From contig JBHLLO010000045.1 of assembly GCA_048885535.1 (NCBI GenBank), positions 1 to 22,904 on the forward strand: a DNA stretch of 22,904 nucleotides, in the 5' to 3' direction. The translations under genes and the position numbers were made by a program. Shown here one piece after another: positions 2,226-20,164 of the stretch. This DNA is from Candidatus Hermodarchaeota archaeon. Lineage in GTDB: Archaea > Asgardarchaeota > Lokiarchaeia > Sigyniarchaeales > SOKP01. Under the pieces are notes generated by a model that saw nothing but the letters and a program-made list of their open reading frames with translations, made no database searches and was not told the origin of the DNA. Position 1 is the first letter of the stretch, and the number at the start of each line of letters is the position of its first letter.

Positions 2226-3209
2226 GTGAAGACTTTGGAAGGACTTCCAAACATTAATCTTATTACATCATTACTAAAAAATTATATGTATGAAGTTGAT
2301 GGCGCTGCAGCTGTTGCGTTGTGTGATAGAGACGGTTTTATAATAGCTTCTGAAAGTAAGGAGAAGGAAAACGAAGATTCAGATTCTATTATTGGAGCAA
2401 TTTCAGCATTCTTAGATATCTATATTGATCGTATAAAAAGTGAATATAAGACACAAAGCAATTTTTTCAATATCACTTCGATGCAAAACAGAAAGTTTGC
2501 ATACTGTTCGATGGGACACCATTCAATCTTAACTACAATTGCAGATCCTTCCACTTCAGATGTTGAGCTAAAGGTATATTCTGAACACATTGCAAGTAAA
2601 ATTGAACTGTTATTAGAAGGAAATGAAAATGTATCAATTGAAATCCCTGAAATTATAAGAGTTTTATCCAAAAGAAGAGAAGGGAAATTGCCGAAAGGAC
2701 AATTTACGGCTAAACTTATTCTGACGGGAGATTTTAAAGTTGGTAAAACGTCCCTAATAAAAAGATTTGTTGAAAATAGTTTTAAAGAAAGTTATATCAG
2801 CACGATTGGAGTTGAAATCTCCAAAAAGTCAATAATTATGGACGAAGAAACTAAATTGAACTTCGTCCTTTGGGATATTGGAGGTCAAATTGGACAAATA
2901 AGACCTTATAGGCAAAGGTTCTATGATGGAGCAAATGCAGCATTTATAGTCGTTGATAGAACGCGAAGCCATATAGAGAGCATAAAGTTTTGGCACAAAG
3001 ATATAAAAGAGTCAGTTCCAAATCATATTCCAATAGTATTAGTAGGCAACAAATCAGATTTACAAGATCAGATTGCAATTACAGAAGAACAATTAAAGAT
3101 TATTTCAAAGGAGTTAGATCTTCATTATATTGTTACCTCAGCTAAAACAGGGGAAAATGTAAACGAAGCATTCCTTTATATTGCTTATAGATTTATAGAG
3201 AAAGTATAA
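2226..3209 (+). CDS. Roadblock/LC7-like domain fused to a Rab-like small GTPase (eukaryotic signature protein)
   Basis: N-terminal VDGAAAVALCDRDGFIIAS resembles roadblock/MglB. The C-terminal part has all G motifs: GDFKVGKTS (G1), STIGVE (G2, Rab-like), WDIGGQ (G3), GNKSD (G4), TSAK (G5). There is no C-terminal Cys prenylation motif. Confidence 0.88.
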   Translation: MKTLEGLPNINLITSLLKNYMYEVDGAAAVALCDRDGFIIASESKEKENEDSDSIIGAISAFLDIYIDRIKSEYKTQSNFFNITSMQNRKFAYCSMGHHSILTTIADPSTSDVELKVYSEHIASKIELLLEGNENVSIEIPEIIRVLSKRREGKLPKGQFTAKLILTGDFKVGKTSLIKRFVENSFKESYISTIGVEISKKSIIMDEETKLNFVLWDIGGQIGQIRPYRQRFYDGANAAFIVVDRTRSHIESIKFWHKDIKESVPNHIPIVLVGNKSDLQDQIAITEEQLKIISKELDLHYIVTSAKTGENVNEAFLYIAYRFIEKV

Positions 3210-4346: not shown

Positions 4347-5567
4347 CTAACTAAAGATATTTTGGATCTGGAACTTCTCAGATATTATTTCATTGAATAA
4401 GAATGACTGAAGTTTCTTTTTAAAATTATTTGTTTGTAAATAACGTTCGAAATGAACCTTGATTTTATCGTATACAAGAGGATTTGAATTAATTACTATA
4501 ATATAATTATCAAATTCTTCCCAATCTAACTTTTTCTTCAGATAGTTTTGAACAGTATTCTCTTCTAATTTGGAGTTTATCTCCTTTTCTAATTCCTCTT
4601 TATTTAAATTATTATTTTCGATTAAAAAATAATCAATTATTATTTTTTGTTTGTTTTGATTCTGAAGGATGATTATTCCCTTTTTCTTTTGCTCCTGGTA
4701 AACGAAGTTTATTACATTGTTGTTTGTTTTTTGAAAGAGTGTGTATAAAAGATATTGAAAATCTTTAAATTCTCCTACTTTAGCGCCTTCAATCTTAGTC
4801 TGGATTAGTGATTGAAAATCTTTATTAATTTCATATCCTATACTTTTACGAAATAATACCTTCGCCACTTTCAGTGAGGTACCAGAACCAACGAAGGGAT
4901 CCAAAATAGTATCTCCAATAAAGGAGAACATACGTATTAATCTGTAGGGTAATTCATCTGGAAACATAGCTATATGTTCTTTTTGTATTATCCCAGGAAA
5001 TTTCCAATGCCCAACAAACCATTTTTTCCATTCTGTTAGAGAAATTTTTGACATCTCTTTGATTTTTAAATCAATTTTTCTTCCTTTCCCGAAAGGTTTT
5101 TTAAAAATTAAGATATGTTCATAATCATAAGTTAATAATCCGTTACGGGGATAATAGATTGACCCCATTAAAGAACAACCTCCTGTAGTATTAGTCGTAC
5201 TAACTTTTTGCCAAATAATATCACCAAGATAATCAAAACCTATTTTTTGGCAATCCTCAATTATTTTACTAGCAATTGATAATATGCGATATCTTCCGTA
5301 TTCTGTAGTCCTAAGATATTGGTCTCCTACATTAATTATCATCCTACAATGCGGTTCCAAAACCCGAAAGCATTCAGTCCATACATTTTTAAGCCTTTGA
5401 AAATAATCCTCAAAGGAGTCAGAAAATCCTATTTGAGATATCGAACCATAATCCTTTATTTTACCATAAGGAGGTGATGTTAGTATTAATTGAATTGAAT
5501 TATCATTAACTTCATTCATTAATTCAGAGCTTTTAAAGTAAATTTTGGGTTCTTCAATATCAAACAT
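4347..5567 (-). CDS. N4-cytosine/N6-adenine DNA methyltransferase (beta class) with C-terminal extension
   Basis: Catalytic motif LILTSPPY precedes SAM-binding motif ILDPFVGSGT (beta order), with HIAMFPDELPYRLI and GYEIN. A GGAG site lies upstream on the minus strand. Confidence 0.88.
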   Translation of the reverse strand: MFDIEEPKIYFKSSELMNEVNDNSIQLILTSPPYGKIKDYGSISQIGFSDSFEDYFQRLKNVWTECFRVLEPHCRMIINVGDQYLRTTEYGRYRILSIASKIIEDCQKIGFDYLGDIIWQKVSTTNTTGGCSLMGSIYYPRNGLLTYDYEHILIFKKPFGKGRKIDLKIKEMSKISLTEWKKWFVGHWKFPGIIQKEHIAMFPDELPYRLIRMFSFIGDTILDPFVGSGTSLKVAKVLFRKSIGYEINKDFQSLIQTKIEGAKVGEFKDFQYLLYTLFQKTNNNVINFVYQEQKKKGIIILQNQNKQKIIIDYFLIENNNLNKEELEKEINSKLEENTVQNYLKKKLDWEEFDNYIIVINSNPLVYDKIKVHFERYLQTNNFKKKLQSFLFNEIISEKFQIQNIFS

Positions 5568-7341: not shown

Positions 7342-10155
7342 ATGAAATCAAAAAATATAATTATTGTTCCGGAAACTCATTGGGACCGTGAAGCCTCATG
7401 AAACTTCTTCTTCAGGCACGATTGGTATCTTCCCTTTCAAGAGTATAGAGCGCGTCTTGTTATTATGATAGATAAGCTCTTAGACATTTTAAAAAATGAT
7501 CCTAATTATACTAATTTTGCTCTTGATGGACAAGTTATCCCCCTTGAAGATTATCTTGAGGTTCGTCCCGAAAAAAAAGAGGAAATCATGAAATATGTGA
7601 AGGAAAAAAGACTATCTATTGGACCAAGTTATGTTCTACCTGATGAATTTTTGATTAGTGGAGAATCTCTGATAAGAAATTTATTAATTGGTCATCAAAT
7701 CTCAAGGAAATTCGGGAGAGTTATGAAAGCTGGTTATATTCCTGATCCTTTTGGCCATATAGCTCAATTACCTCAGATTTTGAAAGGATTCGAGATTCCG
7801 TCATTTATTTTTGAACGAGGTTTTGGAGATGAATTTGAAACCCAAAAGTTGAATATGGAATTTATATGGAATGCTCCAGGAAATGCAGCCTCTATTTTAG
7901 CTATCCATTTAATTTTAGGTTATGGATCGGTCGCAGATTTAGATTATTCAAAAAAGGATGGAGAGTATATCAAAGCTCTTGAAAAAGTAAAGGATCGTGT
8001 TTCTAAATTAGAGGAGTATACTGCTACTCCCATTATTTTACTTAATAATGGTTCAGACCATCATGAGGCTCATCCACAGATTCCTGAAATTATAAAATCT
8101 TGGAATAAAAGGCACCCTTATATTTTAATGGAACAAAATGATTTTGAATATTATATTAATAAAATCTTGGAATGTCAGCCAAAATTAAAGTTTTATCAAG
8201 GAGAACTAAGAGGAAGTAGATATTCGAATATTCTTGCTAGCGTATTCTCTACAAGGATTTGGATTAAGCAAAAAAATACAGAAATTGAACATTTGTTTGA
8301 AAAGTATACAGAACCACTTTCAACCATCACTTGGATTCTTGATAAATATAATGAATTCTCATATCCTAAGACTTATATTCAAGTAGGAATAAAATGGTTG
8401 ATTAAAAATCATCCTCATGATAGTATATGTGGTTGTTCAATTGATCAAGTTCATAATGAGATGAGGACGCGATTTGATTGGTCAGAACAAATAGGAGATG
8501 AGATTATAAAGAATTCCTTTCTATATCTAATTAGATTGATAAACTATGAGAAAAGCTGGACAAAGATTCCTCTTTTTGTCTTTAATCCACTGCCATGGAA
8601 ACGAAAAGATTTGGTTGAATTTAACATCATAAATGAATTTTTTGGATATATAACTTCCACTGACTTTAAAATCGTTGATTCAAATGAAGAAATCGAATAC
8701 CAATATATTAGAGTAAAAGAAGAACCAAGATTTAAGACAACGGCGAGTAAGAGCTATTTATGTACTTTTTTGGCAGATGTTCCAGCACTAGGTTATAAAT
8801 TATATTATATAATCCCCGGGAAAAAGGGTAAAACTTCTTTTGAAGAAAACGAACAATTCAAAATTACCCAAAACACCTTAGAAAATCAATTTTTCCTAGT
8901 TAGAGTAAATTTAAATGGGATGATCGACATCTATGATAAAAGAGGTAAAAAATGGTATGAAAAGCTATGCTTCTTCGAGGATGTCGGAGATTGGGGTGAT
9001 GAGTATGATTTTTCAGGTCCAAATGAAAATCAAACGGATCTAAAATTTACTTCAGAGGATCTTAATTTGTTAGGAATTGAACCATATATTAATGGTCCTA
9101 CCCAAAAAACGATAAAAGTCGACTTAAATCTTAACTTACCAGAATCATTATCGGAAGATAGGTTTAATAGAGAAAACATTTTAGTTTCAAATCTAATCAC
9201 TATCTACATAACTCTATGTAAAGATATTAAACGCATTGATTTTAGATTCGAATTAGAAAATAGTAGCAAAGATCATAGGATTAGGGTGTTATTTCCTACT
9301 GGAATAAAATCTGAAAAAGTAAACTGTGATGACCATTTCTATGTAATATCTAGAAATGTAGAAATACCAAAAGGAGAAAATTGGTATCAAAAGCCTCAAT
9401 TCACTAATTACCAAAAAGATTTTTTGGCAATTAGTGATAGTTCGAGAACCTTTGCCATCTTGAACAGAGGATTGCCAGAATATGAGGCTGTTAAAAATAC
9501 AGATGGCACTATAACCTTAGCTGTAACACTTTTACGTTGTATTGAGTGGCTATCTAGAGATGATCTCGCTACGAGAAATGATATAGCTGGTCCTGCATTC
9601 AACACTCCAGAAGCACAATGTCTTGGAAGTTATACTTTTAACTTATCATTGGTTATTGAAGAGCATAAGATTAGTTGGCTAGACTCAGAAATTCACGTTA
9701 AAGGAATGGAGTTTAACAATCCATTTAAAGTCTTATTCCTGAATATGCTTAAGATTCCCTTCAGATTGCCCAATAAGACTGTTCTTTTTCCTACTCATCG
9801 CATTATTGGTTTTGGATTGACAGAAGATAAAGCTTTAGAAACATATTTGCCACTTGAACTAAGTTTCCTAAAAATTACTAATAATAAAATACTACTCAGT
9901 GCGTTGAAAAAATCTGAAGAAAATAATTATTTGATTGTTAGAGTATATAATATATCTTCTGTCCCTCAAGAATCAACCTTAATATTTTGCAATCAAATTA
10001 AATTGAAGGAAGCAAAAATCGTAAATTTATTAGAAGAACCTCCCATTAATGAAATAAAAGCAACTGTTCAAGTTATAGATGAAAATGTTCTATTAGTCAA
10101 ACTACAAGCACATGTTATAGCTACTGTTAAAATAAAAACTAATAAAAGTCTATAG
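7342..10155 (+). CDS. GH38 alpha-mannosidase (MngB-like), join(7342..7392,7423..10155), 927 aa after removal of a 30-nt intron
   Basis: Exon 1 MKSKNIIIVPETHWDRE joined to exon 2 WYLPFQEYRARLV gives the canonical GH38 Zn-binding HWDREW motif. Also present are LDGQ, GESLIRNL, the nucleophile motif PDPFGH, NGSDH and HPHDSICGCS. The track's 7465 start misses the N-terminus. Confidence 0.9.
7393..7422 (+). other. Putative 30-nt BHB (tRNA-type) intron in the GH38 mRNA
   Basis: GCCTCATGAAACTTCTTCTTCAGGCACGAT contains an in-frame TGA (7399-7401). Central helix CGTG(7387-7390)/CACG(7417-7420), 3-nt bulges AAG and ATT, inner helix CCT/AGG. Cutting after the 2nd bulge nucleotide gives CGT GAA|TGG TAT (REWY). 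Confidence 0.85.
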
Positions 10156-10166
10156 TTGTTACGATT

Positions 10167-10757
10167 ATGTGGAAATCAAAACTTTTAGAATTCATAAAAA
10201 ATTTTGAGCATCCTGCCTGGGGAAAACCTCATTTTGAGCGAATTTATGAAATGTCAATAAAGTTGGCTGAGTTGAACGAGGTTGAGGTAGATAAGGATGC
10301 ATTGTTTGCAGCTGCATACTTACATGACATAGGAGCATTTACACCATATTATTCTAAGGAAAAAGATCACTCTGAAATTGCTGTTAAAGAATGTAGGGAA
10401 ATTTTATCTTCTATAGGATTTCCCTCTAACAAAATTCCACTTGTAAAAGATGTTATAAAGAGTCATATGTTTTATTCAAAACCTTCAGATCAAATAGAAT
10501 CACTAATTTTTCATGATGCTGACACACTTGATTTTATGGGAATGATTGGAATTACCCGCTTACTTTCAATTGTGGGAAAAGATGATTGGACTCCTGATTT
10601 GAACAGCGCTATTAAGATTATTCAAAGATTTTCTAAAGAATTACCTCAATATTTATATACTCAAGCTGCAAAAGAAATAGGTTATAGACGAAAAGAAGAA
10701 ATGGAAGAATTTTTAAAAAATCTGAAAAAGCAGACAAACCAATTTAAAGTTCTATAA
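10167..10757 (+). CDS. HD-domain metal-dependent phosphohydrolase
   Basis: HFERI...AAAYLHDIG...DHS...SH...HDADTLD...G. It starts 11 nt after the GH38 stop, so it is probably co-transcribed. Confidence 0.85.
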   Translation: MWKSKLLEFIKNFEHPAWGKPHFERIYEMSIKLAELNEVEVDKDALFAAAYLHDIGAFTPYYSKEKDHSEIAVKECREILSSIGFPSNKIPLVKDVIKSHMFYSKPSDQIESLIFHDADTLDFMGMIGITRLLSIVGKDDWTPDLNSAIKIIQRFSKELPQYLYTQAAKEIGYRRKEEMEEFLKNLKKQTNQFKVL

Positions 10758-10868
10758 TTATTCATATTCTTGAAAGTTTGAAATCAATAAGAATATTGTA
10801 AATTTGGCGAAGCTTAAATTAAGTTGTAGGTTATCCCAAATAAATCAAATATTATAAAAGTAATTTTC

Positions 10869-11936
10869 ATGAAATTTGGAGAATATTTAAAAGTATATAA
10901 ACAGAACATCAATGAAGCTATAAAGGAAATTTTTGAAAAAAAAATCAGTAAATTAAATAATTCATTTCTTAAAGATTATTATTCTGAATTAAAGGATTAC
11001 TTCTTAGCTGGGGGAAAAAGAATTCGCCCTTTACTTTGTATCGCATCATATAATGCATTTAAAAAACAACAAGATGATAAAATTGTTCCTGCAAGTGTTG
11101 GTATAGAGTTTCTTCATAATGCATCCCTAATACATGACGACATTATTGATAAAGATGATTATAGGAGAGGGAACCCTGCTTTTCATTTTAGATTTAAAAA
11201 TTATCATAAAGGATATAATTTCAAAAAAACAACTGATATTGATTTTGGTAATTCAATAGGTATAATAGGTGGAGATACTGCATTCTTTTTAGGTTTAGAA
11301 GCATATTTTTTTAATGATTTTGAAAATGAGATGAATAATCGAGCTATTAACTTGTATGAACAAGCTTTCATAGATATTGCTAATGGTGTATTAATCGAAA
11401 TGGATATGGTAAATAGAGAAAAAATTGAAATGTCAGATTATATTGAAATGATTTCCTTAAAAACTAGCGCGCTAATAGAAAAGTCGTTGCTAATTGGAGC
11501 AAACTATTCTAAATTAGATAAAGATCATGAAAAGGATTTATCAACTTATGGAATAAATTTAGGTATTGTATTTCAGATAATTGATGATATTTTAGGGACA
11601 TTTGGAGATGAAAAAGTTACTGGAAAACCTACTGATGGAGATATTAGAGAAGGAAAAAAAACTTGCTTATTAATTGAAGCTTTAAATACCTTAGACTCTA
11701 AGAAGAAGAAAAAACTTGAATCTATTTTAAATAAAGTAGAAATTAATGATAATGATGTGGAAACTGTAAGGAATTTATTCCTTGAAGCTGATGTGGTTAA
11801 TTCTAGCAAAAAATTAGCAGAAAAATATTATCAAAAAGCTAAACTGGCTCTAGAAAATTTAAAAGATTGTATTAATCCTCCAGAATTTGAACTATTTGAG
11901 GATCTCTTAAATTTTGTTATGAATAGAACATATTAA
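10869..11936 (+). CDS. Trans-isoprenyl diphosphate synthase (GGPP synthase-like; product chain length uncertain)
   Basis: GGKRIRP, first Asp-rich motif HDDIIDKDDYRRG, GD, KT, second motif FQIIDDILG, GKPTDGDIREGKKT. It is adjacent to the mevalonate genes. Confidence 0.92.
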   Translation: MKFGEYLKVYKQNINEAIKEIFEKKISKLNNSFLKDYYSELKDYFLAGGKRIRPLLCIASYNAFKKQQDDKIVPASVGIEFLHNASLIHDDIIDKDDYRRGNPAFHFRFKNYHKGYNFKKTTDIDFGNSIGIIGGDTAFFLGLEAYFFNDFENEMNNRAINLYEQAFIDIANGVLIEMDMVNREKIEMSDYIEMISLKTSALIEKSLLIGANYSKLDKDHEKDLSTYGINLGIVFQIIDDILGTFGDEKVTGKPTDGDIREGKKTCLLIEALNTLDSKKKKKLESILNKVEINDNDVETVRNLFLEADVVNSSKKLAEKYYQKAKLALENLKDCINPPEFELFEDLLNFVMNRTY

Positions 11937-11960
11937 TTTCTCCAATATTGTTTTAAGCAA

Positions 11961-12209
11961 ATGACTGGATTTAAACTTCCCTTATTTTTATTATTCGGCA
12001 AAAGACCAGTAAAATTTATATCTACAGCTGACGGTGGAATGGATGTTTTAGCATTTAATTGGGAATCTGGTAAATTTGAAAGAGATATGAGCTATTTAAG
12101 TAAATATTTTAAGCATTCACCTGAAGTTGAGGAAGTTAACGAAACAAAATTCAACTCATATGTTGAAAAGTTATTGGAGGAGATTGAAAAAGAACACAAG
12201 AAAGTGTAA
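11961..12209 (+). CDS. Small hypothetical protein (82 aa)
   Basis: ATG-started ORF that fills the gap between the prenyl synthase and the convergent IPK-IDI2 gene, with a protein-like sequence (RPVKF...DGG.DV.AFNWESGKFERD). Confidence 0.7.
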   Translation: MTGFKLPLFLLFGKRPVKFISTADGGMDVLAFNWESGKFERDMSYLSKYFKHSPEVEEVNETKFNSYVEKLLEEIEKEHKKV

Positions 12210-12221
12210 GCGTTTAATTTA

Positions 12222-14114
12222 TCAAATTTGATGCGCCCATTGATTTAAATCCCCAAGTAAAACAATTTTATCCTTATTATTTTTAAGGCTTTCTATATTG
12301 TTTAAATTTAATAACCACATACAAGATTTTAATTCATGTTTTAAAGTCCTTATTTCCTTAATTGTATTAATTGTTGTATTGTTATTGTAATCCTCCCAAG
12401 CTGAAACAAGAAATTTATAAGCGAAACCTCCAATATCGGCTCCTAATATAATACTTTTTGCAATATCTAAACCATCTTTTAATCCTCCAGTAGCTATTAA
12501 TAATTTGCTTGTAACCGCTCTCGCATGTAATATACTAATGGGAGTTGGAATACCCCATTCTCTAAAAGTATCAGCGATTTTTCTAGTAAATACTTCATAA
12601 TCAGAATCATCTCTAAAAGCCTCAATTGCTGCAAAACTTGTACCCCCAGCTCCTCCTACATCGAAACCGTTAAATCCTAAAAGATCAAGTTTTAAAGCTA
12701 AATCTTTATCAAAACCAGTTCCTACTTCCTTTGCGATTAAAGGAATTTTTGCAACTTTTTTTATTTTCAAAAAATTCTCCTGAAAATTATGATATGAAAG
12801 GTCACCGTTTCGTTGAACAAGTTCATGTAAGGCATTAAAATGAATAGCCATTGCATCAGCATTGATCATATCTACGCATTTCTCAAATTCACTTTGTTTG
12901 AAATCTGGATCACTAATTTGTCCTATACCAATATTTCCAATAATAGGGATATTTGGAGCTACCTCTCGAACAATCTCAAATGAATCTATCGTAGATTGAT
13001 TTTCTAAGGCTATACGTTGACTACCTACACTCATAATAATTTTTTCTGATTCAGCAGCTAAAGCTAAAATTTTATTTAATGCTTTGGAAATGGGATGTCC
13101 TCCTGTTATTGCCGCTATACAAATAGGCGCAGAAATAGATTTGTTATAAAATCGAGTAGATAAATCAATATCATTAAAATCAATTTCAGGGAGAGGATGA
13201 TGTACAAATTTTATATCTTCAAAATAATTTTTTGAATGCTGAACGTTATATCTGAGCGGTATTTTTAAATGTTCTATTTTTCGAGAAAAAATCTCTTTTT
13301 GAATTGGAGTAGTTAAATCTGGTTTAATATTGGTAGATGTAATCTTTTGATTTTGTAACGCCTTTAGTATATAACTGTCTTTCAATCCGTTAATTAATTG
13401 GACAGGTATGTTCATTTCACTTATCTTTTTTATAATTTCAAGTTTTCCCTTAATCCCTCCGGTAACATCTATTTTTTCATCAAGTTTGGCTAGCTTTAAG
13501 TTATCTATTTCGCTAGTAGCTATTTCTGTAGCTAATTCTGTATGATCATTTTTTCTAATATATACTCCATCTTTCTCGATTGCAAAAATGACTTTAATAA
13601 TATTCTTTTGAAATCTCTTGCATAACTCTAAAATAATTTGATCACCTGAAAGTATTGAAAAAGAGTTATCTTTTGTAAAAAGAATATCCCCATAAAGTAT
13701 AGGAAGTATATCAAGATTTAACATTGAGTTGATAGGTTCAACTGATTTTAATAAAAGGGTATTCGAGTCCTGAATAAAAATAGTTGATGGTTGTACTGAA
13801 ATAGCAGGAAAATTTTTTTCAATAAATCGATTAATAATAAAAGAGTTAAGTTCATTCATCACTTTATGTGTTTTTGAAAGACCTGTTAATTGATCTCTTA
13901 TTAATGGATTGAAACCTTTAGATATTTGATATTCTTTTGCCATTGGATGACCAAATGATCCACCACCGTGAATAAGAATTAATTTTTGATTACTTTTTAT
14001 AATTTGGTCAATAGTATTATCAATGACATCTTCTCTTAAAGAGAATGGATCATCTTTGTCAGTAAGTAAACTACCACCTAATTTTAATAAATAAATTTTA
14101 TCATTTTTAAGCAA
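12222..14114 (-). CDS. ipk-fni: Bifunctional isopentenyl phosphate kinase / type 2 (FMN-dependent) isopentenyl diphosphate isomerase fusion
   Basis: The N-terminal half is amino-acid-kinase-fold IPK (KLGGSLLTDK, HGGGSFGH, SGD, DVTGGIKGK). The C-terminal half is IDI-2 (RKIEH, AITGG, VGSQR, HFNALHE, KEVG, GAGGTSF, TGG...DIAK). One continuous ORF with a TTG start. Confidence 0.92.
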   Translation of the reverse strand: MLKNDKIYLLKLGGSLLTDKDDPFSLREDVIDNTIDQIIKSNQKLILIHGGGSFGHPMAKEYQISKGFNPLIRDQLTGLSKTHKVMNELNSFIINRFIEKNFPAISVQPSTIFIQDSNTLLLKSVEPINSMLNLDILPILYGDILFTKDNSFSILSGDQIILELCKRFQKNIIKVIFAIEKDGVYIRKNDHTELATEIATSEIDNLKLAKLDEKIDVTGGIKGKLEIIKKISEMNIPVQLINGLKDSYILKALQNQKITSTNIKPDLTTPIQKEIFSRKIEHLKIPLRYNVQHSKNYFEDIKFVHHPLPEIDFNDIDLSTRFYNKSISAPICIAAITGGHPISKALNKILALAAESEKIIMSVGSQRIALENQSTIDSFEIVREVAPNIPIIGNIGIGQISDPDFKQSEFEKCVDMINADAMAIHFNALHELVQRNGDLSYHNFQENFLKIKKVAKIPLIAKEVGTGFDKDLALKLDLLGFNGFDVGGAGGTSFAAIEAFRDDSDYEVFTRKIADTFREWGIPTPISILHARAVTSKLLIATGGLKDGLDIAKSIILGADIGGFAYKFLVSAWEDYNNNTTINTIKEIRTLKHELKSCMWLLNLNNIESLKNNKDKIVLLGDLNQWAHQI

Positions 14115-14144
14115 ATTTAAAACCCTTTTAAAAATACATTTTTT

Positions 14145-15111
14145 TTAACCTATAGTTGTTTTCCATGTTGAAAATCCTTGGTTTTCAATTGCATTAGAGA
14201 TTTTCATCTGTGAATCTAGATCTGAAGTTAAGGCTATTACTAGTCCCCCCCGACCTGTTCCGGTCACTTTTGCTCCTAGTGCTCCATTATTTCTGGCAAT
14301 CTCTACAATTTTATCATTAATTTCACCTGATACAGTTAACATTTGTAAAAGAGTATGGTTTTGATTCATCAGTTTTCCAACTTTGTTCTTTTTTCCTTTA
14401 AGTAATGCTTTCTTTGCATTCATCGCAATTTTTTCATATTGTTTAAATATGGATTTGAACTTATCTTGATTTTTTTCTTTTAATCTTCGAACATCCGAAA
14501 CCACTTCAGCTGTAGAAGCTGTTATACCTGTATCAGCAATAACTAAGTTCATCTTTTCTGCAGATGTTAAACGATCAATTACATTTTTCCCTCCGTTTAA
14601 ATTCTTGACAAACCAGATTAATCCTCCATATGTAGATGCGGTATTATCAATACCAGAGGGTGTACCATGATATGCCATTTCTCCAGCATAGGCGGCATCA
14701 TTAATCTTTTCATCATTTAAGTTTAGATTAAACTCCTCATTAAGCGCACGAGCAAGGGAAGTGCATTGCGCGGCAGAAGCCCCTACTCCACTTGCGGCGA
14801 CTAAATCTCCACTAAAAGTAAGTTCAAGTCTATTATTAAGCGTATCTATATTTAAATATTCTATAACGTTTTTAATTGCTTGTTGTGCTTCATTAAACTT
14901 TGCATCTTTATAACCAGAAGTTGCTATCCTTTGATCGTTGACTATCCATCCTTTACCATCAACAACTTTAACAGTAGTAATTGTTTTAGAGCCTAAAGCG
15001 GAGGCGATAGCTGGGAGACCATAAACCACAAAATGGTAGCGCTTACCCCTGAAGTGGGAGATAAAATTCGCCAAATAGAATGGTTTTCCCATAACCTTTT
15101 CCAGTTCCCAT
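14145..15111 (-). CDS. mvk: Mevalonate kinase, complement(join(14145..15035,15067..15111)), 311 aa after removal of a 31-nt intron
   Basis: ATG 15111 is preceded by AAGGTGA. Exon 1 MGTGKGYGKTILFGE joined to exon 2 HFVVYGLPAIA gives GHMP motif 1 (GKxILFGEHxVVYG). Also present are SGVGASAA, HGTPSGID and GAKVTGTGRGG. The track's 15092 start gives a non-homologous N-terminus. Confidence 0.92.
15036..15066 (-). other. Putative 31-nt BHB (tRNA-type) intron in the mvk mRNA
   Basis: Minus strand TTTTATCTCCCACTTCAGGGGTAAGCGCTAC shifts the frame and contains a TAA in the exon-1 frame. Central helix GGCG(15072-15069)/CGCT(15041-15038), bulges AAT and ACC, 8-bp inner helix TTTATCTC/GGGGTAAG (with G-U pairs). 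Cutting after the 2nd bulge nucleotide gives GGC GAA|CAT TTT (GEHF). Confidence 0.88.
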
Positions 15112-15184
15112 AAATTTCACCTTATTTATCATAAAATTGTGTTATTTTCAAATATTAATTATTTTTTAAAATTTTGTAAAGATT

Positions 15185-15577
15185 TTAGTCTAAAATCTCA
15201 ACTAATCCTTCAGAACCATTAACAACAACATTATCATTATTTTTTATTTTGGTTATATCAATCATATCGATGCAAGGAATTTCGCTTATAATGCAACCCA
15301 CAGCAATAATAGTATCAATATTCTTGTTGATTATTGCTAAAGGAGCAGTATTATTTTTTTTCATTCGATACATTGTATAGGAACCTACAGTCGATCCTTT
15401 CCCAGTAGGAAATACTAAAATTTTCCCTGTTATAATTTGACCTTCTAGTTCATGACCCACTTCTACAACTTTTCCAGAATCGGGATCAACCCCGCCATAA
15501 AATGAAATTCCTTCACTTGTCACAATTGCTTTTCCCGATACGATACCTTTATATATTTTTCTTCCCTCTAATTTCAT
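15185..15577 (-). CDS. Phosphomevalonate dehydratase small subunit (aconitase X swivel domain, DUF126)
   Basis: ISFYGGVDPDSG, GKILVFPTGKGSTVGS and AVGCIISEIP. The start is moved to ATG 15577 (MKLEGRK), which overlaps the large-subunit stop as ATGA. Confidence 0.88.
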   Translation of the reverse strand: MKLEGRKIYKGIVSGKAIVTSEGISFYGGVDPDSGKVVEVGHELEGQIITGKILVFPTGKGSTVGSYTMYRMKKNNTAPLAIINKNIDTIIAVGCIISEIPCIDMIDITKIKNNDNVVVNGSEGLVEILD

Positions 15578-16767
15578 TTTAAAGCCTCCGCTACACACTC
15601 CTCAATTGTGCCAATTCTTACTTTAAATTTGTTTTTAGCTCTACCATAATAACAGGCCTTAGCAGAATCAACCATAATTCCTTTAAAACGCCCTTTGATA
15701 GGAGCAACAACACAACATGTATCTGCAGCAAATTTCGCTCCCGAACTTTCTATTACTTTCGAATATCCAGCCTTATCAGCAATGTTTTTAGTAGGTCGAG
15801 CAGTTGTTATCCAAAATTCTTTATTTACTTTCTTTCCTTCTAATAACCTTGCTATTAATGCAAGTTCATGGATTGAAGCATGAGGACACCCAATACTTAT
15901 GAAATCTATTTCAAGATCTTCATCAATAAGTTCCTTACGAGTCCTATCAAGATCCTCACCTGATATCTGAAAGGAAATCTCTTTCGGTTTAGGATATTTA
16001 TTATACTCGGGTGTTATTCCTTCCATATGAAACAATGCTGTTCCGCCATAAGTAGCAACTGAAGCACAAAATGCTTTGAGCTCTTCGACAGTTGCAGATG
16101 TTATACCCGCGATGTAAGGTATTTTTTGACCAACCTTTACCAATTTATCTCCAATAATTTTTCCTAACACTCCAAATTCATCAGTACCATTTATAGGTGA
16201 ATTAATATTGAATAGTACTTGACCATAACGGTTTTCGCCTATATGATAACCATAGTTTGGTGTTTTACCTGTTAAAGCAGCAGCCAAAGCACTTGGTCCA
16301 CCCTCACGATTCGTCCTAGCCCCTATAACTGAATTAGCATAACAAACAGCGCTACTTTCGGCCCATGCTATATGTTGTCCATAATGGGGAGTATTTCCAA
16401 TTAGATAAGGAGTACAAGAACATGTTGTGATAATTCCCATTTTAGCAAATGCGTCTATAGCACGATTTTGATTCTTAGCAAAATCCTCATCTATTCCTAA
16501 TGTTTCCCAATTTTCTATATCCATGCCCGCAGGATTTAAAGTTGTTAAAACTTTGACTTTCCCATCCTCAGCCATTTCATTGAGAAATTCTAATCCTGCT
16601 TCACCTAAATTGTCGTAGGAAACTCCAGCTATCTGAACACTATACACATCAATCATGTTTTCAGCATTAAAAATTTCTCCTAAGATTGTTAGTATTTCCA
16701 TAGATTTTTGAGCTGCTCTGCCGTAATTTCCATCCAACATGTCTTTTTCTTCAGGTTCCAAAAGCAT
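15574..16767 (-). CDS. Phosphomevalonate dehydratase large subunit (aconitase X catalytic domain, DUF521)
   Basis: AGVSY, TTLNPAG, TCSCTPY, AWAESSAV..ANSVIGARTNREGGP, IGCPHAS and DTCCVVAP. The likely start is ATG 16767 after a GTGA element; the track uses GTG 16776. Confidence 0.88.
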   Translation of the reverse strand: MLLEPEEKDMLDGNYGRAAQKSMEILTILGEIFNAENMIDVYSVQIAGVSYDNLGEAGLEFLNEMAEDGKVKVLTTLNPAGMDIENWETLGIDEDFAKNQNRAIDAFAKMGIITTCSCTPYLIGNTPHYGQHIAWAESSAVCYANSVIGARTNREGGPSALAAALTGKTPNYGYHIGENRYGQVLFNINSPINGTDEFGVLGKIIGDKLVKVGQKIPYIAGITSATVEELKAFCASVATYGGTALFHMEGITPEYNKYPKPKEISFQISGEDLDRTRKELIDEDLEIDFISIGCPHASIHELALIARLLEGKKVNKEFWITTARPTKNIADKAGYSKVIESSGAKFAADTCCVVAPIKGRFKGIMVDSAKACYYGRAKNKFKVRIGTIEECVAEALK

Positions 16768-16776
16768 TTTTATCAC

Positions 16777-18096
16777 TTAAACCGAATTAAAATATTTTTT
16801 TAAATTAACCTTAGGAAAGTATGCTTTATTGAAATCTTTCCCTTTAGTTAGTAATGGTTTAGTTAAGTCAAATCCAATTTTAGTTGTTAATTTTGTTCCA
16901 GGTTCAGCACTAGGGTCTAAACTACTTCCTGGTTCTTTATCTTTAATTATCATCCCTCTGTCTCCTTGAAAGCGAGTTGCCATTGCCCATTCTACTGATA
17001 ATGGATCATAAATATCAATATCTTCATCAACTACAAATACATGTTTACAACTACTGTGACCTGCAAAAGCACCTTGAATTGCCTTTTTACCATCATCTTC
17101 CGATTGTTTATTAATTTTCACAATTGCATGAAGCCATGAACATCCTCCTGGATTTATGTTTACATCCAAACATTTTACTCCTATATCATTTACCTTATTA
17201 AAAATAGTAGGCTCACGAGGCATTCCCATTAAAACCTTATGTTCTAATGCACCTGGCAATAATGCTTGCCAAATTGCATCTTTTCTATGGGTTATTTTCT
17301 TAACTTCAAAAATAGGTTCTTCTCTAACTACATCATATGTTTCTGTTAGGTCTACAAACGGTCCTTCACTGTGTTTCTCCTCCAAGTAGACTCTTCCTTC
17401 TAAAATGAATTCTGCTTCTGCAGGAACTAGCAAATCAACAGTTTTTGCCTTAACAACTTCAATTGGCTCTAAAGCGTTTGCAATTGTTAATTCATCAACA
17501 CCAAGGTCAACAGAAGTAGCTCCAGCAATGAGTATATTAGGAGGATTCCCGATACAAAATGCAACGTCTAATTCACCGTTCTTTTCTAAAAATTTATCAA
17601 AGTGTCGTCCCTTCACAACTCTAGTTGCAAATTTTTCCTTAGAAAACTGCATTGCTCTATGAAAATCCAAGTTTTGTCCATAGTCAGGATCTCTAGTAAC
17701 CACTACAGCTGAACTTATATAATTTCCTCCATCATTTTCACAGTGGAATAAAATTGGAATTTTATCCAAATCTACGCTCGATTCAACTATTTCTTGACAT
17801 GGAGCCGCTGAGATAACCTTAGGCTCTTTACTATTTAAAATCGCTTTGGAAAGCTTAGGTATTAATTCCGCAGGAGTGATATCAAAATATGAGGCAATTG
17901 AATTTTTAGTACAAAACATATTACCAACTACTCGGAAATTAGAATGCTTCACATGGTTAAAAAGTATAGGTGTTGGTTCTAATACTTTTAAAATACCTGA
18001 AATTTCTAACTTCTTTGAGACTTCTGTATCAACCTTCTTAAGAATACCCTTCTCATCAATTTTATTCAAATAGTCTCTAAATCCCACATTTGACAC
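16777..18096 (-). CDS. UbiD-family decarboxylase, probable anhydromevalonate phosphate decarboxylase
   Basis: DGGNYISS, FHR, VPAEAEFILEG, EGPF, VVDEDIDI...VEWAMATRFQ, GSSLDPS. It lies in an operon with the dehydratase subunits and HMGR. Confidence 0.88.
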   Translation of the reverse strand: MSNVGFRDYLNKIDEKGILKKVDTEVSKKLEISGILKVLEPTPILFNHVKHSNFRVVGNMFCTKNSIASYFDITPAELIPKLSKAILNSKEPKVISAAPCQEIVESSVDLDKIPILFHCENDGGNYISSAVVVTRDPDYGQNLDFHRAMQFSKEKFATRVVKGRHFDKFLEKNGELDVAFCIGNPPNILIAGATSVDLGVDELTIANALEPIEVVKAKTVDLLVPAEAEFILEGRVYLEEKHSEGPFVDLTETYDVVREEPIFEVKKITHRKDAIWQALLPGALEHKVLMGMPREPTIFNKVNDIGVKCLDVNINPGGCSWLHAIVKINKQSEDDGKKAIQGAFAGHSSCKHVFVVDEDIDIYDPLSVEWAMATRFQGDRGMIIKDKEPGSSLDPSAEPGTKLTTKIGFDLTKPLLTKGKDFNKAYFPKVNLKKYFNSV

Positions 18097-18169
18097 CTTT
18101 TAATAAATCTTTCAATAATAAAAAATAAATGAAGTAACTAAAGGATTTTATGAACCACTTTTTAAAAAA

Positions 18170-19450
18170 CTAAAGGTTTTTTTGGCTCATTATATCATTC
18201 AATATTTTTTTCGCGTAATCAACCCTAATTTTTTTATCTTTAATTAATTTTTGTGCTACTTGCTCCAAAAGATGATCTGGTACTCCAGCTAGCTTAGCAA
18301 TGTTTCGAGAGTGAAGTGCCATGTGTCCCTTCTGAATACCTTCTGTTGCTAGAGCTCTTAAAGCGGCTACATTTTGAGCTAATCCTACCGCAGCAGCTAC
18401 TTGACATAATTCTTCAGCACTTTTTATCCCTAAAATCTTTAGATTTAACTGTGCCATAGGATGAATTTTAGTCATTCCACCTATAATTCCCAATGCTAAA
18501 GGTATTTCAATCTCCCCAATTAAATTTCCATTTGAATCTACATCAAACATTGTTAAAGGAGTATATTTTCCTTTTAGTGAAGCATAAGCATGAGCTCCAG
18601 ATTCAATAGCTCGTGTATCATTTCCAGTTGCTAAGGTTAGGGCAGCTATTCCATTCATAATTCCCTTATTATGGGTTGTGGCACGATAAGGATCAGCAAG
18701 AGCAAATTCGTATGCGTTTAATATTCCTTCAACAACCTTTTCTCCACCTAGTAAGTCCTTATCAAAGGTAGCTTTACATTTTGCTATTCTATGAGTAGCT
18801 AAATTTGAAACTATTCGTAAATAAATCAAACCGCCACATAATTCCTCAATGTAAGGTGAAATAGCTTCCGCCATAGTATTAACAATATTTGCACCCATTG
18901 CATCCAAAACATTAACCAATAAATGCATGATTAACATTTCACCTTTCTTGGTTTTGATTTCTCTAAGTTCAAAATCATATGCCCCTCCGCCAAGATTTAC
19001 TAAAAATGGATCTTGATCATTAGCAATTCTTAGCAAATCCAATTTATTTTCTATTAATATATTTCTAGCACTCTCAATATCTTCAACATTTGTTATTTGA
19101 ATTTGAGAAATCATAAATGAGTCTACTTTTTCTGAAAAGAAACCACCATGCTTTCGAGCTATTCTTGCTGCATTTGACGCAGCAGCAACCACAGAAGGTT
19201 CTTCTATTACCATAGGAATTAAATAATCTTTATTATTTATTTTAAAATTACAAGCAATACCAATCGGTAATTGATAAGAACCTACTACATTTTCAATTAA
19301 TGTATCAATTTGAGTCTCCTTTAGATATCCTAAATTTTTTAATAGTTTGATATCTTCATCATTAAGATGAACAAGTTCAGAGAGTATTTTCTGTCGTTCT
19401 TTTAGCGATAATTTATAAAATCCTGGGAGATCTGAATGAAATTCACTCAT
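18170..19450 (-). CDS. mvaA: HMG-CoA reductase, class II (bacterial-type)
   Basis: IENVVG, PMVIEEPSVVAAAS, DAMGAN, SNL, RATTHNKGIMNG, GNDTRAIE and GIQKGHMALH. Confidence 0.93.
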   Translation of the reverse strand: MSEFHSDLPGFYKLSLKERQKILSELVHLNDEDIKLLKNLGYLKETQIDTLIENVVGSYQLPIGIACNFKINNKDYLIPMVIEEPSVVAAASNAARIARKHGGFFSEKVDSFMISQIQITNVEDIESARNILIENKLDLLRIANDQDPFLVNLGGGAYDFELREIKTKKGEMLIMHLLVNVLDAMGANIVNTMAEAISPYIEELCGGLIYLRIVSNLATHRIAKCKATFDKDLLGGEKVVEGILNAYEFALADPYRATTHNKGIMNGIAALTLATGNDTRAIESGAHAYASLKGKYTPLTMFDVDSNGNLIGEIEIPLALGIIGGMTKIHPMAQLNLKILGIKSAEELCQVAAAVGLAQNVAALRALATEGIQKGHMALHSRNIAKLAGVPDHLLEQVAQKLIKDKKIRVDYAKKILNDIMSQKNL

Positions 19451-19600
19451 TTTATTACCACCAATTTATTTTTACATTAAGAAATTACATTTTAACTAAC
19501 ATTAATTTATTGGATATATTTACTAAAAATAATTATTAAATACTTATCATTATTAATATGAAATATTTCTTAAAATAAAATCTAAATCTCGTGATTAACA

Positions 19601-20164
19601 TTGATTCTTATAGCAATTACTGGTGCGACAGGAATCTCGATTGCTATTGAATTATTAAAGGTTTTAAGAGAACAAAAAGTCTCAACAGAGTTAATTATAT
19701 CAAAAGCAGCAGAATTAGTATTAAATAATGAAACAGAATTAAATTTATCAGAAATATATAATTTGGCTACTCAAGTGTATGATATTGACGATTTAGAAGC
19801 ACCTCCTGCGAGTGGGTCCCATAAGTTAGATGCTATGATCGTTGTACCTTGCACTATGAAGACTTTAGCATCTATTGCTCATGGATATGCTGATAACTTA
19901 ATCACTAGAGCTGCTGATGTTGCAATAAAAGAACAGAGAAAACTGGTTTTAGTAGTAAGAGAAAGCCCTTTGAGCGCAATCCACCTTGAGAATATGCTCA
20001 AACTCGCAAAACTGGGAGTAGTTATAGCACCTCCAGTTCCTTCCTATTATATCAAACCTAAAAATGTTCATCAACTAGTTAATCATATTGTAGGAAGATT
20101 ATTAGATCAACTGGATTTTGATATAGGGATAAAAAGGTGGAAAGATGAACAAATGGAAAGTTGA
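19601..20164 (+). CDS. ubiX: Flavin prenyltransferase UbiX
   Basis: IAITGATG, PASGS, VPCTMKTLASIAHG.ADNLITRAADV..KEQR.LVLVVRESPLSAIHLENM. TTG start after a GTGA element. Confidence 0.93.
   Translation: MILIAITGATGISIAIELLKVLREQKVSTELIISKAAELVLNNETELNLSEIYNLATQVYDIDDLEAPPASGSHKLDAMIVVPCTMKTLASIAHGYADNLITRAADVAIKEQRKLVLVVRESPLSAIHLENMLKLAKLGVVIAPPVPSYYIKPKNVHQLVNHIVGRLLDQLDFDIGIKRWKDEQMES

Follow-up and report, generated by a model that had tools for sequence, protein, structure and literature searches.

The stretch of DNA analysed here (the window: 22,904 nucleotides (nt), contig JBHLLO010000045.1 of a Candidatus Hermodarchaeota archaeon) carries a gene for a GH38 alpha-mannosidase and, on the opposite strand, a gene for a mevalonate kinase. 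Each of these genes is interrupted close to its 5' end by a short insert that separates a first exon of 17 or 15 codons from the rest of the coding sequence, and in each the point of interruption falls directly behind a conserved motif (Table 1). A reading made from the sequence alone, referred to below as the sequence-only reading, had proposed that these inserts are micro-introns of the bulge-helix-bulge (BHB) type, the class otherwise found in archaeal tRNAs and rRNAs, and its coordinates, lengths, phases and junctions for the 30- and 31-nt inserts all proved correct.

The first line of evidence comes from the distribution of the inserts among relatives. Each exon-2 protein was used to search 41 genomes, the present one included, of which 25 belong to the same genus and 16 to the same order. 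Among 30 kinase loci, 12, all from the same genus, have an insert of 30 or 31 nt at the identical position, and 17 are insert-free with the exons joined exactly as predicted (within the genus 6 close orthologs and 2 distant copies, plus 9 loci of other families); the last locus is cut by a contig end. The GH38 search also returned 30 loci, with a 30-nt insert at the same point in 8 of the same genus, the exact predicted junction without an insert in 20, and an unreadable sequence in 2. Outside the genus all relatives lack both inserts, and the spread is patchy, with one close relative having the kinase intron and lacking that of GH38. Cuts placed two nt after each strand of the helix described below give, without a single nucleotide of deviation, the junction seen in insert-free orthologs (20 GH38 and 17 kinase loci), so the proposal that a single cut rule restores both proteins exactly has been borne out. 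Because the inserts sit at the same site in 8 and 12 genomes and their junctions agree exactly with those of insert-free orthologs, the motif must be more than a chance resemblance. The alignment of orthologs that had been put forward as a check has thus returned what was hoped for, namely intron presence and absence at identical sites among congeners (8 GH38 and 12 kinase genomes with the insert).

The same comparison leaves almost nothing of the idea that the inserts are artefacts of assembly or binning. The genome is a metagenome assembly of 112 contigs, where errors of this kind could arise, but the same inserts recur, with sequence differences, in the 8 and 12 separately assembled genomes. 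Contigs from two sequencing runs span both inserts without a gap, and none of them has the joined form; these runs belong to one study, and the source sample may be among them. We regard an artefact as extremely improbable.

The sequence that the inserts split off is under selection. GH38 exon 1 is kept in the 8 insert-bearing and the 20 insert-free loci, and in the insert-bearing genes the variable sites of exon 1 at codon positions 1, 2 and 3 number 3, 1 and 12 for GH38 and 1, 4 and 11 for the kinase. Variation that is mostly at third positions means that the split-off exon is still translated in its own frame. Profile matches of both proteins start late when exon 1 is left out, and the missing N-termini therefore correspond to exon 1: GH38 exon 2 alone matches Glyco_hydro_38N (Pfam) from profile position 14 and an insert-free ortholog from position 1, and kinase exon 2 matches TIGR00549 (NCBIfam, mevalonate kinase) from profile position 11 and an insert-free ortholog from position 3.

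These data can be set against the possibility that the genes are read as they stand, the kinase from an ATG at 15092 and the mannosidase from an ATG at 7465, with exon 1 as a decaying remnant or the genes as pseudogenes. Open reading frames (ORFs) of the required kind exist: a 315-amino-acid ORF for the kinase, and one of 896 amino acids (7465-10155) for the mannosidase, beginning at its next downstream ATG. A read-through route is, moreover, kept in 6 of the 12 insert-bearing kinase genes. However, no start codon reads across the insert in the other 6 kinase genes, nor across it into exon 2 in any of the 8 GH38 genes. The third codon of the GH38 insert is an in-frame TGA (7399-7401); the frame of kinase exon 1 ends at a stop 7 codons beyond the junction. 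The 19 residues that read-through would add to the kinase bring no gain in the TIGR00549 match (215.7 versus 215.4 bits, with 226.8 bits for the insert-free ortholog). The claim that retention of the insert blocks translation accordingly holds for GH38 and formally fails for the kinase of this genome, where ATG 15092 reads through. Together with the conservation of exon 1, its mostly third-position changes, and the case of EF-1alpha described below, where the sole match in a genome has two stops in the P-loop and cannot be a tolerated pseudogene, these results make it very unlikely that the genes are used in their unspliced form. The start codon of kinase exon 1 is itself variable. Among five kinase loci (L009, L013, L014, L015 and L006), it is ACG in four and CTG in one, none of the five has another in-frame start after the stop of the upstream gene, and the four ACG-start relatives have an out-of-frame ATG able to read through the insert.

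At the level of RNA, both inserts allow the same arrangement. A 4-base-pair (bp) central helix joins exon and intron, the cuts lie two nt after each of its strands, on opposite strands, and a hairpin made by the insert alone stacks on the helix. The GH38 helix (pairs 10-43 to 13-40) is 100% paired in 8 sequences. In the 12 kinase sequences three pairs of the helix are fully kept, and the outermost pair is G-U in 7 and unpaired in 5; one genome has the helix GGUG/CACU, the product of a synonymous exon change (GGC to GGU) compensated by a change in the intron.

Alignments of the orthologs point in the same direction. Over the 8 GH38 genomes, 92.3% of the cells are paired, compared with 25-50% when partners are slid; 5 pairs have changed on both sides (in the inner hairpin, 5 of 8 pairs), giving a covariation score reached by 0 of 500 shuffles. 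The kinase alignment of 12 sequences has 86% of cells paired, versus about 45% with partners slid, and 84% in the inner hairpin, with 3 pairs changed on both sides and a score reached by 19 of 500 shuffles. RNAalifold, applied without guidance to eight GH38 orthologs, found the central helix together with its 5' bulge and the hairpin, and drew the 3' side as a 9-nt loop closed by GGGA/UCYC instead of a 3-nt bulge. The minimum-energy fold of the kinase insert is the BHB arrangement; for GH38 this arrangement appears only as an alternative to the minimum-energy fold. The sequence-only reading had described a 4-bp helix flanked by two 3-nt bulges, of which the helix and a clean 5' bulge are found in both inserts, the 3' bulge being closed in each by one invariant outer pair only. 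Both inserts fit the relaxed BHB, that is, the HBh' form as described in PMC5829648, and not the strict form. Rfam gave no match at gathering score anywhere in the window, and no catalytic RNA model (group I or group II) matched.

Genes for two EndA paralogues, each a PF01974 match of about 200 amino acids (regions C6:30393-30617 and C1:55964-56212), and for one RtcB are present in the genome. The positions that we take to be the catalytic Tyr-His-Lys are kept in one EndA paralogue, and the His is absent from the other; these residue patterns suggest that the pair may be a catalytic and a structural subunit. The tRNA genes of the genome are also heavily interrupted. Asgard EndA is presented as a two-subunit, broad-specificity type with a specificity loop in PMC5829648, and a preprint on Asgard tRNA introns (bioRxiv 10.64898/2026.10.13.758758) reports that introns were gained repeatedly and independently and that 44 of 60 Asgard genomes have two EndA paralogues. 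The word mRNA does not occur in the main text of that preprint. The view of the host as Asgard-like is upheld by a GTPase locus treated below, whose closest public relatives are labelled Promethearchaeota (Asgard), with Candidatus Lokiarchaeum ossiferum at 70% identity.

Introns in other genes were sought by a comparison that makes no use of the motif. The present genome was searched in translation against 1.15 Mb of a congener, and the congener against it. Three detectors looked for alignments that break off, for inserts that stay in frame but contain stops, and for pieces of either terminus lying 15-150 nt out of place; 662 and 666 fragment pairs were compared once off-frame shadows had been removed. 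Introns common to both genomes, such as that of the kinase, are not counted in this census. Lineage-specific introns were found in 3 of 662 gene fragments of the present genome and 2 of 666 of the congener, about 0.5%; the GH38 intron was recovered and serves as a positive control. The others lie in genes for a small Arf/Ras-like GTPase and a glycosyltransferase-3 family protein in the present genome, where four introns are now known (GH38, mevalonate kinase, GTPase and glycosyltransferase-3 family), and in EF-1alpha and an acyl-CoA dehydrogenase-like gene in the congener. Introns of about 30 nt and of BHB type occur sporadically in other genes of this Promethearchaeota genus and are gained or lost between close species. 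The glycosyltransferase-3 intron has no strict placement under the coded rule; by eye it forms a helix CAGU/GCUG, with a mismatch near the base of the hairpin. About 30 stop-free in-frame inserts that were flagged are taken as ordinary indels, among which stop-free introns may hide, and the remaining flagged items are most likely upstream non-coding sequence, apart from ambiguous cases such as two given below.

This census corrects the expectation that many genes of the genome are spliced in this way, which is too strong given 3 of 662 and 2 of 666 fragments and the result for HMG-CoA reductase, a window gene chosen as negative control, which has no extra length in any of 38 genomes. The extent of introns in this genome is modest. 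The HMG-CoA reductase match in one genome (G014, C173:14676-15941) contains one in-frame TAA without any extra length, a case distinct from the introns under discussion. The remaining window genes with a Pfam match align from the first positions of their families, and three genes have no family match.

A search by structure alone did not help. It returned 594,740 BHB-like placements across the genome, of which the number joining reading frames was no higher than for cuts displaced by 1-2 nt; limited to lengths of 27-34 nt with a hairpin of 5 bp or more, it gave 32 internal and 220 N-terminal cases, versus 32-49 and 286-338 for decoys. As the true cut rule does no better than decoys, such a scan is powerless and gives no genome-wide count. 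The scan for further cases that the sequence-only reading had advised therefore fell short in its structural version, which matched decoys, and succeeded in the motif-free comparison, with two more introns in the genome. A separate scan for conserved short peptides upstream of orthologs, aimed at shared introns, was swamped by off-frame shadows of coding DNA.

Two of the additional genes deserve closer attention. Of 42 same-genus genomes, 38 have a single EF-1alpha match each, and in 3 of these 38 congeners the sole match is 33 nt longer and includes TAG and TAA. That the only copy of an essential gene has stops in its P-loop argues strongly that the insert would be removed from the RNA. The GTPase, whose protein is 91-98% identical within the genus, has one intron in the present genome and one, three and four in three others of the 41 genomes searched. 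In a public collection, where at least one locus duplicates a genome of that set, 10 of 66 full-length GTPase loci have, ahead of codon 190, between one and four inserts that measure 20 nt or more. About eleven distinct positions are occupied overall. For 14 of 28 GTPase inserts there is a strict BHB placement that also produces, at the junction, the peptide predicted by the insert-free reference (with no deviation from it other than point differences also found elsewhere in those orthologs), whereas slid controls gave 0, 0, 1, 1, 1 and 5 of 28. An attempt to set the GTPase boundaries by protein score misplaced known boundaries and was replaced by BHB placements checked against the reference peptide.

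Introns in this set measure 28-33 nt, with one of 45 nt. Insertion at phase 0 after GAA, which had been given as a shared property, is true of the GH38 and kinase introns and does not extend to the others found, among which are introns that interrupt a codon (phase 1 or 2). All introns looked at are located in a highly conserved motif or adjoin one (HWDRE/W, LFGE/H, the P-loops of GTPase and EF-1alpha, KHST/GG), a siting that resembles that of inteins and homing introns and may partly reflect how the cases were found. Many hairpin loops of the GTPase introns have TTCG or TCGA, as judged by inspection, despite a genome of 30% G+C. Three other length differences from the congener were recorded: a 60-nt insert with three stops in a short conserved, non-protein-like stretch (G000:C1:87890-88420) that may be an intron-containing RNA gene; an insert of 48/51 nt that precedes the end of a gene by seven codons (G000:C34, ~22006-23043, minus strand); and a 19-nt difference (G000:C66, ~3098-3112, minus strand). 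The last two could each be an intron, an indel or a frameshift.

Table 1. Features of the two interrupted genes in the window and candidate introns located elsewhere in the genus. In bulges and peptide motifs a slash marks the predicted cut, in helices it separates the two paired strands; G000 coordinates refer to the present genome.
Feature	Position	Strand	Particulars
GH38 alpha-mannosidase exon 1	7342-7392	+	17 codons, ATG at 7342; ends on conserved HWDRE
GH38 candidate micro-intron	7393-7422	+	30 nt; absent at exactly the same point in 20 of 28 readable loci
GH38 exon 2	7423-10155	+	stop included; Glyco_hydro_38N, middle and C-terminal domains matched
Helix H 5' strand (exon), GH38	7387-7390	+	CGUG, then bulge AA/G
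Helix H 3' strand (intron), GH38	7417-7420	+	CACG, then bulge AU/U
Inner hairpin h', GH38	7394-7416	+	arms 7394-7401 and 7409-7416
Mevalonate kinase exon 1	15067-15111	-	15 codons, ATG at 15111; ends on conserved LFGE
Mevalonate kinase candidate micro-intron	15036-15066	-	31 nt, frame-shifting; absent at exactly the same point in 17 of 29 readable loci
Mevalonate kinase exon 2	14145-15035	-	stop included; TIGR00549 match
Helix H 5' strand (exon), kinase	15069-15072	-	GGCG, then bulge AA/U
Helix H 3' strand (intron), kinase	15038-15041	-	CGCU, then bulge AC/C
Inner hairpin h', kinase	15042-15065	-	arms 15065-15058 and 15049-15042; exactly as in the minimum-energy fold
Alternative ORF	14145-15092	-	315 amino acids; out-of-frame ATG at 15092 reads through the kinase insert; judged unlikely
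Small Arf/Ras-like GTPase candidate intron	G000:C27:15290-15318		29 nt, helix CUUU/AAAG; in the present genome, not in the congener
Glycosyltransferase-3 family candidate intron	G000:C28:21548-21577		30 nt, splits KHST/GG; in the present genome, not in the congener
EF-1alpha candidate intron	between GHIDHGK and ST (P-loop)		33 nt, helix AUGG/CCAU, 8-bp hairpin; congener only
Acyl-CoA dehydrogenase-like gene candidate intron			33 nt; congener only

The kinase belongs to a larger group of genes in the window. Positions 10869-20164 hold an archaeal-type mevalonate pathway cluster with polyprenyl synthase, mevalonate kinase, the small and large subunits of AcnX, a UbiD-like decarboxylase, HMG-CoA reductase and a flavoprotein, as well as a protein in which an amino-acid-kinase-family domain is fused to an FMN-dependent dehydrogenase domain. 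Elsewhere in the window lie a restriction-modification methylase of the Eco57I type, truncated where the window begins (3-1610), a Ras/Roc-like GTPase with a 160-residue N-terminal extension (2226-3209) and a second DNA methylase (4347-5567).

If the inserts are absent from the proteins, the ribosome might skip them with the RNA left uncut, as in the programmed bypassing of phage T4 gene 60, where a short hairpin-forming coding gap is likewise absent from the protein. The inserts are indeed short, form hairpins and follow a sense codon. Bypassing of the gene 60 type requires matching take-off and landing codons, and these differ here, GAA versus GAU for GH38 and GAA versus UAC for the kinase. 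Other introns that split codons are beyond repair by bypassing, and a conserved 4-bp helix between exon and intron is left unexplained by a process that cuts no RNA. Skipping by the ribosome is thus highly improbable.

The sole serious rival to BHB splicing is excision from the RNA by enzymes that are not EndA and RtcB but another nuclease and another ligase, for instance by a hairpin-recognising system acting at the base of any short inverted repeat. We know of no other archaeal exon-joining pathway, which counts against such a system. Symmetric cuts at helix plus two, which the two window introns share with the introns of EF-1alpha, of the GTPase and of the acyl-CoA dehydrogenase-like gene, are the BHB signature and disfavour it, and Asgard EndA is reported to be a broad-specificity, two-subunit enzyme (PMC5829648). 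A hairpin-triggered, RtcB-dependent excision is reported in animals under the name of SOS splicing (PMC12779559), and the near absence of an outer helix and the half of the GTPase inserts that fail the strict BHB rule also speak for such a rival. On balance we think this alternative unlikely.

BHB introns within the mRNAs remain, in our view, very probably the correct explanation of both inserts. In its favour stand presence and absence at identical sites, compensatory changes, third-position variation in exon 1, the genes for EndA and RtcB and the further cases, all of which support the interpretation first made from the two genes. A number of observations weigh against it. A search for an RNA sequencing run that contains this stretch found none. 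Both window introns have an outer exon-exon helix of roughly 1 bp, which leaves the 3' bulge ill-defined, so that neither is a strict hBHBh' motif. RNAalifold did not return the motif on the kinase alignment, and flanked single-sequence folds are no stabler than shuffles (z = 0.6 to -1.0). The cut after the second bulge nucleotide is a rule carried over from general background, and when it was held against the tRNA introns of the present genome 6 of 23 ARAGORN calls fitted, ARAGORN being a program that mis-models multi-intron tRNAs. Fourteen of the 28 GTPase inserts have no strict placement under the coded rule, and it was the slid control at -2 that gave 5 of 28. The kinase is formally readable through its insert from another ATG in the present genome and 5 relatives, and its exon-1 start codon is ACG in four insert-bearing relatives. 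That cutting and joining take place in the cell, and through which enzymes, we infer from the DNA.

The following sequence of events would account for the observations. In the transcript, the 4-bp helix would arise by pairing between the last nucleotides of exon 1 and the insert's 3' end and would be continued by the insert-only hairpin, which would place the splice sites in short unpaired stretches on opposite strands, each two nt after a helix strand. EndA, probably in its two-subunit broad-specificity form, would cut both sites, and RtcB would ligate the exons and probably circularise the 30-nt intron. Splicing of this kind would restore the motifs HWDRE-W in the mannosidase and LFGE-H in the mevalonate kinase.

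The nearest known system is the BHB intron in the pre-mRNA of crenarchaeal cbf5 (Watanabe 2002; Yoshinari 2006; Yokobori 2009, PMC2738675), which PMC5829648 and PMC2738675 name as the pre-mRNA intron case. Going by these sources, it shares with the present introns a short BHB-type intron in a protein gene, relaxed motifs, a host with a two-subunit endonuclease, and gain and loss between related species, whereas it concerns one recurrent gene in Desulfurococcales and Sulfolobales, as against at least 7 unrelated genes in a Promethearchaeota genus. In the window, the host genes encode a GH38 mannosidase and a mevalonate kinase and the relatives are Promethearchaeota, which places these introns outside the cbf5 type. 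Unlike the cbf5 intron, the present ones are uniform in length apart from the single larger one, number up to four per gene and lie inside highly conserved motifs. Archaeal tRNA and rRNA introns have the same motif and presumably the same enzymes. In the present case, by contrast, the host RNA is an mRNA with no cloverleaf to aid recognition, excision must keep the reading frame, and unspliced RNA can give truncated products.

Parallels also exist in mRNA splicing outside the archaea, in HAC1/XBP1 mRNA and in SOS splicing; the latter is not known to restore the reading frame exactly as a rule. HAC1/XBP1 mRNA is spliced in the cytoplasm by IRE1 together with tRNA ligase or RtcB. As is proposed here, a very short mRNA intron is removed without a spliceosome through cuts in stem-loops and a tRNA-splicing ligase, and its removal changes the reading frame; the nuclease and recognition motif are different, however, and there is one regulated target in place of scattered housekeeping genes. 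SOS splicing removes inverted-repeat transposons from animal mRNAs and resembles the present case in its trigger, the pairing of inverted stretches within an mRNA, in needing no spliceosome and in its use of an RtcB-family ligase, but it is eukaryotic and directed at DNA transposons (PMC12779559).

Full-text literature yielded no report of BHB introns in Asgard protein genes, in a search that left out most subscription journals, so that a prior description is possible. What appears to be new is a uniform class of about 30 nt, spread over many unrelated genes in an Asgard lineage, several per gene in some species, and sited in conserved motifs, which is best read as a class of endonuclease-type mRNA introns.

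The finding could be of consequence for several reasons. Splicing of archaeal mRNA by the endonuclease route has so far rested on essentially one gene, cbf5. If the interpretation given here is true, scattered mRNA introns, some in essential genes and several to a gene, would make this splicing a normal part of gene expression in one lineage. For annotation, it would mean that such genes are called truncated, mis-started or broken; here, the kinase would be given a false N-terminus and the mannosidase would lose its metal-binding motif. We would go further at odds only slightly better than even, and propose that the genus hosts a turning-over population of BHB micro-introns of about 30 nt in the most conserved motif sites of ordinary and essential genes (the P-loop of EF-1alpha, motifs of small GTPases, active-site motifs of kinase and hydrolase), some of them with several, such that the tRNA-splicing enzymes are needed for expression; spread by a homing-like or reverse-splicing route and regulatory use are conceivable parts of this picture. 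Gains and losses between congeners would offer a natural series in which to study the origin of BHB introns. An Asgard cell that tolerates split protein genes, with mRNA splicing carried out by proteins only, would be relevant to how intron-rich genes could become tolerable before the spliceosome. If the proposal of a turning-over intron population is right, a working, genome-scattered and non-spliceosomal form of mRNA splicing would exist in the closest prokaryotic relatives of eukaryotes.

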